Shown here: in pieces, positions 30,677 to 52,890 of the stretch | How the letters are laid out: each line of letters begins with the position of its first letter | How positions within the stretch are numbered: the first letter of the stretch is position 1 | Program-made: the position numbers and the translations under genes | Source: Escherichia coli | GTDB lineage: Bacteria; Pseudomonadota; Gammaproteobacteria; Enterobacterales; Enterobacteriaceae | DNA: 64,000 nucleotides | NCBI RefSeq assembly: GCF_003334385.1 | Contig: NZ_QOWN01000011.1 | Strand: one strand, 5' to 3' | The notes under the pieces: model-generated | Told to the model about the DNA's origin: nothing | The model's input: the letters and a program-made list of their open reading frames with translations, nothing else | The model's database searches: none

Positions 30677-30870
30677 TGCCGGATGCGGCGTGAACGCCTT
30701 ATCCGCCCTACGCGGTTCTGGCACATTTTGCAGGCCTGATAAGACGCGGCAAGCGTCGCATCAGGCATCGGAGCACTTATTGCCGGATGCGGCGTGAACG
30801 CCTTATCCGGCCTACGGTTCTGGCACCTTTTGTAGGCCTGATAAGACGCGGCAAGCGTCGCATCAGGCAT
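30677..30870. repeat. BIME: four REP units as a tandemly duplicated ~100-bp module
   Basis: TGCCGGATGCGGCGTGAACGCCTTATCCG...CAGGCCTGATAAGACGCGGCAAGCGTCGCATCAGGCAT occurs twice in tandem (about 30670-30769 and 30776-30870) with a few substitutions. Confidence 0.85.
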
Positions 30871-47506: not shown

Positions 47507-50434
<2,928 letters not shown>

Positions 50435-50957: not shown

Positions 50958-51932
50958 ATGACAGACTTAATCCAACGCCCTCGTCGCCTGCGCAAATCTC
51001 CTGCGCTGCGCGCTATGTTTGAAGAGACAACACTTAGCCTTAACGACCTGGTGTTGCCGATCTTTGTTGAAGAAGAAATTGACGACTACAAAGCCGTTGA
51101 AGCCATGCCAGGCGTGATGCGCATTCCAGAGAAACATCTGGCACGCGAAATTGAACGCATCGCCAACGCCGGTATTCGTTCCGTGATGACTTTTGGCATC
51201 TCTCACCATACCGATGAAACCGGCAGCGATGCCTGGCGGGAAGATGGACTGGTGGCGCGTATGTCGCGCATCTGCAAGCAGACCGTGCCAGAAATGATCG
51301 TTATGTCAGACACCTGCTTCTGTGAATACACTTCTCACGGTCACTGCGGTGTGCTGTGCGAGCATGGCGTCGACAACGACGCGACTCTGGAAAATTTAGG
51401 CAAGCAAGCCGTGGTTGCAGCTGCTGCAGGTGCAGACTTCATCGCCCCTTCCGCCGCGATGGACGGCCAGGTACAGGCGATTCGTCAGGCGCTGGACGCT
51501 GCGGGATTTAAAGATACGGCGATTATGTCGTATTCGACCAAGTTCGCCTCCTCCTTTTATGGCCCGTTCCGTGAAGCTGCCGGAAGCGCATTAAAAGGCG
51601 ACCGCAAAAGCTATCAGATGAACCCAATGAACCGTCGTGAGGCGATTCGTGAATCACTGCTGGATGAAGCCCAGGGCGCAGACTGCCTGATGGTTAAACC
51701 TGCTGGAGCGTACCTCGACATCGTGCGTGAGCTGCGTGAACGTACTGAATTGCCGATTGGCGCGTATCAGGTGAGCGGTGAGTATGCGATGATTAAGTTC
51801 GCCGCGCTGGCGGGTGCTATAGATGAAGAGAAAGTCGTGCTCGAAAGCTTAGGTTCGATTAAGCGTGCGGGTGCGGATCTGATTTTCAGCTACTTTGCGC
51901 TGGATTTGGCTGAGAAGAAGATTCTGCGTTAA
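50958..51932 (+). CDS. hemB: porphobilinogen synthase
   Basis: 324-aa product [26 protein letters not shown]...; metal-binding Cys cluster [12 protein letters not shown]. Confidence 0.95.
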
Positions 51933-51980
51933 TTTTGTTTCCTCTCAGAAAGGGGGAGTTAACCTGTTGAAAGTACGGTG

Positions 51981-52026
51981 AACGCCCCCTCACCCTAACC
52001 CTCTCCCCAAGGGGGCGAGGGGACCG
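51981..52026. repeat. GC-rich imperfect palindrome (boxC-like) between convergent hemB and tauD
   Basis: GAACGCCCCCTCACCCTAACCCTCTCCCCAAGGGGGCGAGGGGACC: CCCTCTCCCC and GGGGGCGAGGG arms around a 2-nt loop; family assignment from memory. Confidence 0.45.
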
Positions 52027-52038
52027 TCCACTCTCGTA

Positions 52039-52890
52039 TTACCCCGCCCGATAAAACGGTTTATCCCCAAGGATCGTCGCCCGATGCATTATCCGTCGCT
52101 GTGGCAGGTAATCGGCATTGGCATAGTGCTGGGTCACGCGGTTATCCCAAATCGCAATATCATTTGGTTGCCAGCGCCAGCGCACCTGAAACTCCGGTTT
52201 GGTGATATGGGCAAACAAAAAACTTAACAAGGCTTCGCTCTCTTTCTCGCTCACATCAACAATTCGCGTAGTAAAGCCTTCATTCACAAACAGCGCCTGT
52301 TTACCGCTCACCGGATGCGTTCGCACCACCGGATGTAGCAACGGCGGGTTTTTCGCGACCGCCTCGCGCCAGCGTTGATGTTCCTCCTCGGTTTTGCGGT
52401 ATTTGTATTCCGGGAACGATTTACGGAAATCATGCTCCGCACGCAGCCCACTCAGCAGCTGGCGGAAGGGAACAGAGAGCGCCTCATAGGCCGCAATACC
52501 GCTGGTCCAGAGCGTATCACCGCCGGTCGAAGGTAACTCTTTAGCTGCCAGAATCGCCCCTGCGGGTGGCGTTTCAATAAATGTCACATCGGTATGCCAG
52601 TTGTCGTTATCTGGCGGATTATCGTTATGGGTATCCAGCACGATGATCTCGTCAACCCCTTCGGCATGCGGGTAAACAGGGTGAATATGCAATTCGCCAA
52701 AACGCTGGGCCAGCGCGCGTTGCTGCTGCGGCGTAATAGCTTGATCGCGTAGAAACACCACCTGATGGCGCAGCACCGCATGGTAAAGCTGTTCAAACTG
52801 ATTATCGCTTAACGGGCGCGTCAGGTCGGCACCCGAAATTTGTGCGCCGATATACGGCCCCAGCGGGGTAATGCTCAGACGTTCACTCAT
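52039..52890 (-). CDS. tauD: taurine dioxygenase (Fe/2-oxoglutarate dependent)
   Basis: 283-aa [38 protein letters not shown]... Confidence 0.95.

Follow-up and report, generated by a model that had tools for sequence, protein, structure and literature searches.

The BoxC repeats of Escherichia coli were described by Bachellier, Hofnung and colleagues in the 1990s as elements of 56 bp present in about 32 copies. Petrillo et al. (2008) gave the same figures (56 bp, 32 copies) from the literature, and their own search, built on a 50-nt model, recovered 22 members. The motif was rediscovered by Hoyne and Maher (2000, 2002) as the PIT element, and Holder et al. (2015; PMC4666352) equated their TMECO motif with both BoxC and PIT. 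By the account of Holder et al., Hoyne and Maher (2002) found in a functional study that PIT elements act neither as promoters nor as terminators and leave RNA polymerase unaffected. Kaplan et al. (2016; PMC5100583) described the motif from another side, as group HPG1, a "G-quadruplex-hairpin-duplex switch" for which a regulatory or terminator role was put forward as a hypothesis only. Its wide spread is likewise already published: the motif has been reported from more than 260 genomes (Holder et al., 2015) and called "conserved throughout bacteria" (Kaplan et al., 2016).

Here, we characterized a copy of this element in a 64,000-nt stretch of E. coli DNA (contig NZ_QOWN01000011.1 of assembly GCF_003334385.1), the whole of which is referred to as the window. 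Two genes converge at the site, namely hemB (porphobilinogen synthase; 50958..51932, plus strand, from the ORF list, and 975 nt in the RefSeq annotation of identical DNA), whose TAA stop codon lies at 51930-51932, and tauD (taurine dioxygenase, the last gene of tauABCD; 52039..52890, minus strand, from the ORF list and the same annotation), whose stop codon occupies 52039-52041. A sequence-only reading of the window had noted this convergent arrangement, a 106-bp gap and a GC-rich imperfect palindrome within it that resembled boxC-type repeats. The gap (51933..52038) does measure exactly 106 bp, and the palindrome was located at 51986-52021, where its description turned out to be incomplete rather than wrong, since the element is built of three blocks instead of a simple palindrome. 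The resemblance to BoxC proved stronger than had been claimed. The interval 51986..52021, read on the minus strand as CCCTCGCCCCCTTGGGGAGAGGGTTAGGGTGAGGGG, is the 36-nt core of BoxC/PIT/TMECO/HPG1 and an exact match to TMECO no. 5, a type-A element with one mismatch that Table 1 of Holder et al. (2015) places at MG1655 388,664-388,699. The two agree in coordinates as well as in sequence when window positions are converted to those of MG1655. Supplementary Table S2 of the same paper locates TMECO no. 5 "3' of tauA/B/C/D, 3' of hemB", and Table 1 of Kaplan et al. (2016) lists HPGQ 13, of group HPG1, between tauD and hemB with a midpoint of 388,688, which falls inside the 36-nt core. Judged by its sequence, the hemB-tauD palindrome is a known, catalogued BoxC copy that already stands in two published tables. 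The earlier boxC-type call was therefore right, given the exact match to TMECO no. 5/HPGQ 13 and the equation of TMECO with BoxC and PIT by Holder et al., and annotation pipelines should label the element BoxC rather than "terminator". It is wholly intergenic, 17 nt from the tauD stop and 53 nt from that of hemB by our own count (17 and 51 nt in Supplementary Table S2), and it is oriented so that its blocks read C-C-G in the hemB 3' UTR and C-G-G past the tauD stop. On its other side, hemB adjoins an uninterrupted, autotransporter-like ORF of 968 aa (47528-50434, minus strand). This ORF lies at what we take to be the position of yaiT, a gene presumably disrupted by IS3 in K-12 MG1655, and the window may thus stem from a close relative of MG1655 instead.

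On the minus strand, the element has the three-block layout CCCTCGCCCC-CTT-GGGGAGAGGG-TTA-GGGTGAGGGG. Block 1, the C-block (52012..52021, minus strand; GGGGCGAGGG on the plus strand), is separated by loop 1 (CTT, 52009-52011) from block 2, the first G-block (51999..52008, minus strand), which is followed by loop 2 (51996-51998), with the TTA that is the hallmark of type A, and by block 3 (51986..51995, minus strand), a second G-block that is the mirror repeat of block 2. All features that define the three-block family, namely CCCTCKCCCC, the complementary GGGGAGAGGG, the mirrored GGGTGAGGGG and the type-A loop TTA, were found at 51986-52021. Blocks 1 and 2 can pair at nine of ten positions, with one G.A mismatch, and an alternative pairing of blocks 1 and 3 has eight Watson-Crick pairs and one G.T wobble. 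Seen on the plus strand, the element consists of two C-blocks and one G-block that is able to pair with either of them, which gives rise to two overlapping inverted repeats: CCCCTCACCC (51986-51995) with GGGCGAGGGG (52013-52022), 10 nt long and 90% complementary, and CCCTCTCCCC (51999-52008) with GGGGCGAGGG (52012-52021), in which nine of ten positions pair around a 3-nt loop. For either strand, RNA folding predicted a hairpin with 5+4 bp and a loop of 3 nt; given the base composition, its stability is unremarkable (z = -1.46 and +0.19). Because these z-scores are ordinary, the significance of the element rests on its repetition and not on its folding energy.

That repetition is extensive. The search for other copies that the sequence-only reading had called for returned matches to the spacer in all of the complete E. 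coli genomes (5,426/5,426), at a median of 17 places per genome and at 19 places in K-12, and MG1655 carries 23 dispersed and nearly identical copies at 18 loci. Within the window, the 36-mer occurs once when up to three mismatches are allowed (0.00 expected), and a profile HMM trained on these 23 copies has its sole match at 51984-52029 (E = 2.8e-14); neither blastn-short nor the profile detected a further BoxC copy in these 64 kb. When all 23 copies from the 18 MG1655 loci were retrieved and aligned, the type-A consensus read GCaCgGaCgGTC, core, GAACAGGCCnGCAC. The family unit is about 46-56 nt long, and the profile match to the hemB-tauD copy spans 46 nt. The family-conserved 5' flank (52022..52029, minus strand; GGACGGTC) is kept here in agreement with this consensus, whereas the 3' flank, GGCGTTCACCG, departs from the type-A GAACAGGCCnGCAC and resembles that of the lldD and phnP copies.

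Other identities for the spacer were considered and set aside. A REP identity was rejected, as the consensus GCCGGATGCGGCG...CTTATCCGGCCTAC is absent from 51933-52038 and a shared 9-mer, GTGAACGCC, is too short to signify. Four matches to the REP (PU/BIME) consensus do occur elsewhere in the window (10881-10914, 30678-30711, 30782-30815 and 61828-61861), where none would be expected. Rfam covariance models gave chance-level matches only (E >= 1.1, for example Antizyme_FSE at E = 1.1), with scores far under the gathering thresholds. The spacer was also examined as an inverted doublet of a decayed type-B and an intact type-A element, of the kind present at five paired MG1655 loci, and this was rejected because the left half (51933-51985) matched type B at the level of shuffled sequence (13 vs. 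13.7 +/- 2.1). In the opposite orientation, the left half matched BoxC only marginally, with a score of 19 that was reached by 69 of 2,000 shuffles. There is, in addition, a 16-nt direct repeat of 81% identity between 51941-51956 (CCTCTCAGAAAGGGGG) and 52000-52015 (CCTCTCCCCAAGGGGG), which may be a decayed tandem copy or chance; since the upstream match is marginal against shuffles, the repeat is at most a weak hint of the former.

The spacer itself exists in two forms. Out of 5,426 complete genomes of E. coli, the BoxC form is present in 3,599, counted as genomes with at least 80% of the 106 nt, and an unrelated spacer of 39 nt in 1,819; together these make up the 5,418 genomes that have the hemB-tauD locus. 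The two alleles have no common spacer sequence. The shorter one forms a hairpin, ATGCCGGGTT-ATCC-AACCCGGCAT, with a perfect 10-bp stem and RNA z-scores of -4.6 and -4.1. As one third of E. coli genomes lack the element at hemB-tauD, any role that it plays there is dispensable or replaceable. A further variant was seen in 228 genomes with the BoxC allele (strain SCU-152, for example), which have an extra 51 nt directly after the element, following window position 52029. This insertion is bounded by GACYGTCC direct repeats (GACTGTCC and GACCGTCC), and its end, GCTCGAGGTGACCGTCC, resembles a BoxC G-block with its flank; it may be a decayed partial duplication. The hemB-tauD spacer is thus a natural two-allele system in which the effect of BoxC on mRNA stability or local mutability could be tested.

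The block geometry and the variability of the locus both bear on the idea that the element acts as DNA only, its G-rich strand folding transiently into a triplex or G-quadruplex when single-stranded during replication, repair or transcription, so that polymerases are stalled and the locus becomes prone to rearrangement, with no function as RNA. The mirror alignment of blocks 2 and 3 has eight G.G positions, one A.A and one T.A, each a triad permitted in a purine-motif triplex, and the same two blocks contain four G-tracts with 3-nt loops between them, a canonical G4 motif. By these rules, the G-rich strand of this copy is a predicted triplex or G4 former. TMECO oligonucleotides form a stable intrastrand triplex, with a Tm of 70-82 C and support from CD and NMR, and TMECO loci vary more between strains than control spacers do (Holder et al., 2015); the measurements concern representative oligonucleotides other than the exact CTT loop variant found here. 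K+-dependent switching between G4 and hairpin was reported by Kaplan et al. (2016), whose G4-prone sites are enriched in MutL-associated regions, and the hemB-tauD locus has two alleles and the 51-nt insertion variant abutting the element. However, in vivo DMS footprinting at one probed locus gave no triplex protection, and the blocking of polymerase in vitro was without effect in vivo (Holder et al., 2015). Duplex forms once the complementary strand is present. Moreover, 3,599 genomes have inherited the BoxC allele stably, with 97-100% identity, and variability at a repeat locus would be equally expected from insertion and loss of a mobile element. We consider an action confined to DNA possible but doubtful.

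The sequence-only reading had proposed that the palindrome is probably a bidirectional transcript end or stabiliser. The first part of this proposal did not hold, there being neither a U-tract nor a mapped 3' end, and the second is plausible by analogy only. A bidirectional intrinsic (Rho-independent) terminator would fold in both transcripts and release RNA polymerase at the element; a GC-rich hairpin is formed on both strands, the position between convergent genes is fitting, and such a role was also speculated upon by Kaplan et al. (2016). However, no U-run follows the stem on either strand, the next bases being GACCGUCCAC when read in the sense of hemB and UUAGGGUGAG in that of tauD, and a scan for terminator-like sites found none in the spacer. 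In the reporter tests of Hoyne and Maher (2002), as related by Holder et al. (2015), PIT/BoxC was inactive as a terminator. Published Term-seq data for cells grown in LB to OD 0.4, in LB to OD 2.0 and in M63 glucose (Adams et al., 2021; PMC7815308) contain no curated 3' end in MG1655 388,400-388,999, an interval that includes the element. hemB is absent from all four supplementary files of that study and tauD has a single entry, in Supplementary file 2, which is the Rho region described below; since tauD is silent in those media, the null result bears on the hemB side. The TERMITe supplements have no entries for hemB, tauD, ppiC or lldD. Read-through on the hemB strand rises with bicyclomycin, and termination peaks about 165 nt downstream of the element. 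Intrinsic termination at this site appears to us highly improbable.

The bicyclomycin experiment of Adams et al. (2021) assigned a Rho region to the hemB strand, with its peak at 388,499 (-), the description "antisense tauD", a Rho score of 3.80 and p = 2e-9. Converted to the window, the peak lies at 52186 (plus strand), about 165 nt past the element and within tauD antisense, a position of coarse resolution because the method compares 800-nt windows. Together with the lack of a 3' end at the element in that dataset, this region indicates that hemB transcription passes the element and is ended by Rho in tauD antisense. The element might then contribute as a rut site for hemB, with Rho binding its G-free, C-rich stretch and terminating downstream in tauD antisense. 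A candidate rut-like segment of 26 nt, G-free and 65% C, comprises the two C-blocks in hemB-sense RNA (51985..52010, plus strand); the region is the first past the hemB stop in which C exceeds G (40% C vs. 21-23% G over 78 nt), and the Rho peak is placed downstream of it. However, the predicted fold has one of the C-blocks engaged in pairing with the G-block, and the score behind the peak is computed from 800-nt windows. Rho commonly ends read-through into convergent genes with or without BoxC. Copies that are read in the G-rich orientation, as at ppiC and at adk (498,060), have Rho regions after them too, and for this reason the evidence for a rut site is weak. We think it improbable that the element loads Rho.

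The explanation that we favor, at a probability of roughly one half, is that the element is BoxC copy no. 5, a tolerated repeat that is not a terminator and that acts as a barrier to 3' exonucleases after Rho termination. It would be a structured repeat, probably mobile at one time, that is tolerated here and is not dedicated to regulation. Transcription from either side would produce a GC-rich stem-loop in the mRNA, its 9-bp stem interrupted by one mismatch and closed by a 3-nt loop, that would not itself halt RNA polymerase. The hemB transcript would read through, to be ended by Rho about 165 nt downstream, antisense within tauD, and 3'-to-5' exonucleases would likely stall at the stem-loop, so that a processed 3' end would be defined and stabilised. 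The predicted hemB end lies near 52025 and that of tauD near 51995. REP stem-loops shield upstream mRNA from 3' exonucleases, as in the malE-malF case, and a model in which Rho terminates downstream and exonucleases then trim back to a stem-loop was reportedly put forward by Dar and Sorek in 2018.

Support for such a barrier comes from other members of the family. Matched by gene name and element sequence, 3 of the 23 BoxC copies have mapped Term-seq 3' ends 4-12 nt past the hairpin in the dataset of Adams et al. (2021). The primary 3' end of lldD, at 3,781,065 (+), lies 4 nt past the hairpin of TMECO 17, a copy with the same orientation, GACCGT flank and GGGGACCGT junction as on the hemB side here. 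On the ppiC strand, an end at 3,959,467 (-; score 28,044) lies 4 nt past the block 1/block 2 hairpin of TMECO 20, and a Rho region at 3,959,177 lies about 290 nt beyond that end. The third end, at 624,567 (-; score 50,300), is 12 nt past TMECO 7. The hairpin geometry of the hemB-tauD copy is that of the copies with 3' ends, with one mismatch. Ends just past BoxC hairpins, with Rho acting further downstream, suggest the pattern expected from exonuclease trimming back to a stable stem-loop, and by analogy with these copies an exonuclease-barrier role at hemB-tauD is plausible. When the repeat catalogue is set beside 3'-end maps, stable RNA 3' ends, with Rho acting downstream, are seen to fall at some of the BoxC copies, an overlap that was not considered in the BoxC, PIT and TMECO literature as searched. 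In the fepB-entC divergent region, two strong orphan 3' ends, 624,567 and 624,680 (-), bracket a BoxC pair in the fepB leader. The latter (score 243,213) is situated a few nt upstream of TMECO 8 on the transcript, before its C-block, and these leader ends suggest BoxC-linked processing or pausing in a 5' UTR.

Several observations weigh against the barrier. The hemB-tauD copy has no such 3' end in the three conditions of Adams et al. (2021), although coverage of the hemB strand, at 86 reads upstream, is of the same order as that of ppiC at 147; for this reason, we hold the barrier role with moderate confidence only. Just 3 of the 23 copies have such ends in that dataset, the hairpin contains a mismatch, and its stability is not above that of shuffled sequence. 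Furthermore, a simple barrier role would leave unexplained both the near-identity of the copies and the occurrence of a 21-nt core across phyla.

The last point emerged from a scan, in one genome per species, for exact matches to the 21-mer GGGAGAGGGTTAGGGTGAGGG, which was found in at least 120 stretches from at least 24 phylogenetically distant genomes. Among the matches listed were Pseudomonas (about 30 copies in each of two genomes), Contendobacter, Polaromonas, Bradyrhizobium and Asticcacaulis, as well as Deltaproteobacteria, Verrucomicrobiales, one short contig of an archaeal metagenome-assembled genome, and a Gracilibacteria genome of the candidate phyla radiation in which five copies, with flanks of 29% GC, lie on contigs 82-489 kb long. 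Among the matches listed, 117 of 124 have a complementary C-block ahead of the 21-mer, and the GC content of the flanks ranges from 0.29 to 0.65. In Pseudomonas, the copies have 5' flanks of the kinds seen in E. coli, CGGTCAGTC and CGAACGGTC. In the two Pseudomonas genomes, the 21-mer is embedded in longer lineage-specific repeats whose 5' flank matches that of E. coli BoxC, and one matched stretch among those listed holds a perfect four-block version of the palindrome. As for extrachromosomal replicons, 865 out of 72,556 plasmid records contain copies, among them chromids of rhizobia and Azospirillum, which hold as many as 34; of 50,697 phage records, 9 do. Copies resembling BoxC, 95-98% identical, were also seen on genuine E. 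coli plasmids of 18-129 kb. The literature describes the motif as not associated with plasmids, a statement that these copies on E. coli plasmids and on chromids qualify.

Such a distribution would suit a purely selfish mobile element of the REPIN or MITE kind, without effect on hemB or tauD and kept up either by gene conversion or by an enzyme that mobilises it. In MG1655, the 23 copies are almost the same in sequence and have common flanks beyond the core, five loci hold inverted A+B pairs in the manner of REP doublets, and presence and absence are both seen at hemB-tauD across genomes. At least 24 distant genomes contain the 21-mer and its complementary C-block, in flanks with a GC content anywhere between 0.29 and 0.65, and the 865 plasmid records point the same way. 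Against this, the hemB-tauD locus offers neither target-site duplications nor a clean empty site, its alleles being without common spacer sequence, and the element is nearly absent from phages. To our knowledge, no transposase has been linked to BoxC, and we know of no RAYT-type transposase for it. Also, TMECO positions are mostly conserved among strains (Holder et al., 2015). A purely selfish element is, in our estimation, unlikely.

It is also conceivable, if rather improbable, that the BoxC core is a cross-phylum element kept constant by sequence- or structure-specific machinery and that it serves as an anchor for the trimming of Rho-terminated transcripts. Such machinery may, for example, be a single-stranded DNA transposase that recognises the folded three-block structure, as RAYTs do with REPINs. 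The hosts of the 21-mer with its C-block extend over the Gamma-, Beta-, Alpha- and Deltaproteobacteria, Verrucomicrobia, Gracilibacteria and the archaeal metagenome-assembled genome listed above. If this were true, the 3' ends at lldD, ppiC and fepB would reflect a general anchor role, and the hemB-tauD copy would be one instance of a widely shared element that defines 3' ends.

Returning to a catalogued BoxC repeat that is tolerated at hemB-tauD and may act as an exonuclease barrier, the comparison with described systems is as follows. The element belongs to the BoxC family of Bachellier, Hofnung and colleagues, from which we found no essential difference here. It is the same motif as PIT/TMECO, and the purine-motif triad rules are satisfied in this copy; the invariant core of HPG1, GGGAGAGGGTTAGGGTGAGGG, is likewise present and does not differ in sequence. 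With intrinsic terminators it has in common a GC-rich stem-loop just past the stop codons on both strands, but it differs from them in having no U-tract, no site in the terminator scan and no mapped 3' end, and in that Rho acts further downstream; the 39-nt alternative allele, with its perfect 10-bp stem, has the cleaner hairpin. REP/BIME (PU) sequences are, like BoxC, short, GC-rich, extragenic palindromic repeats that are often found in 3' UTRs between convergent or tandem genes. They differ in belonging to another sequence family and in forming a simple stem, where BoxC consists of three blocks. The mechanism by which REP protects mRNA is the very one that we propose may operate at BoxC.
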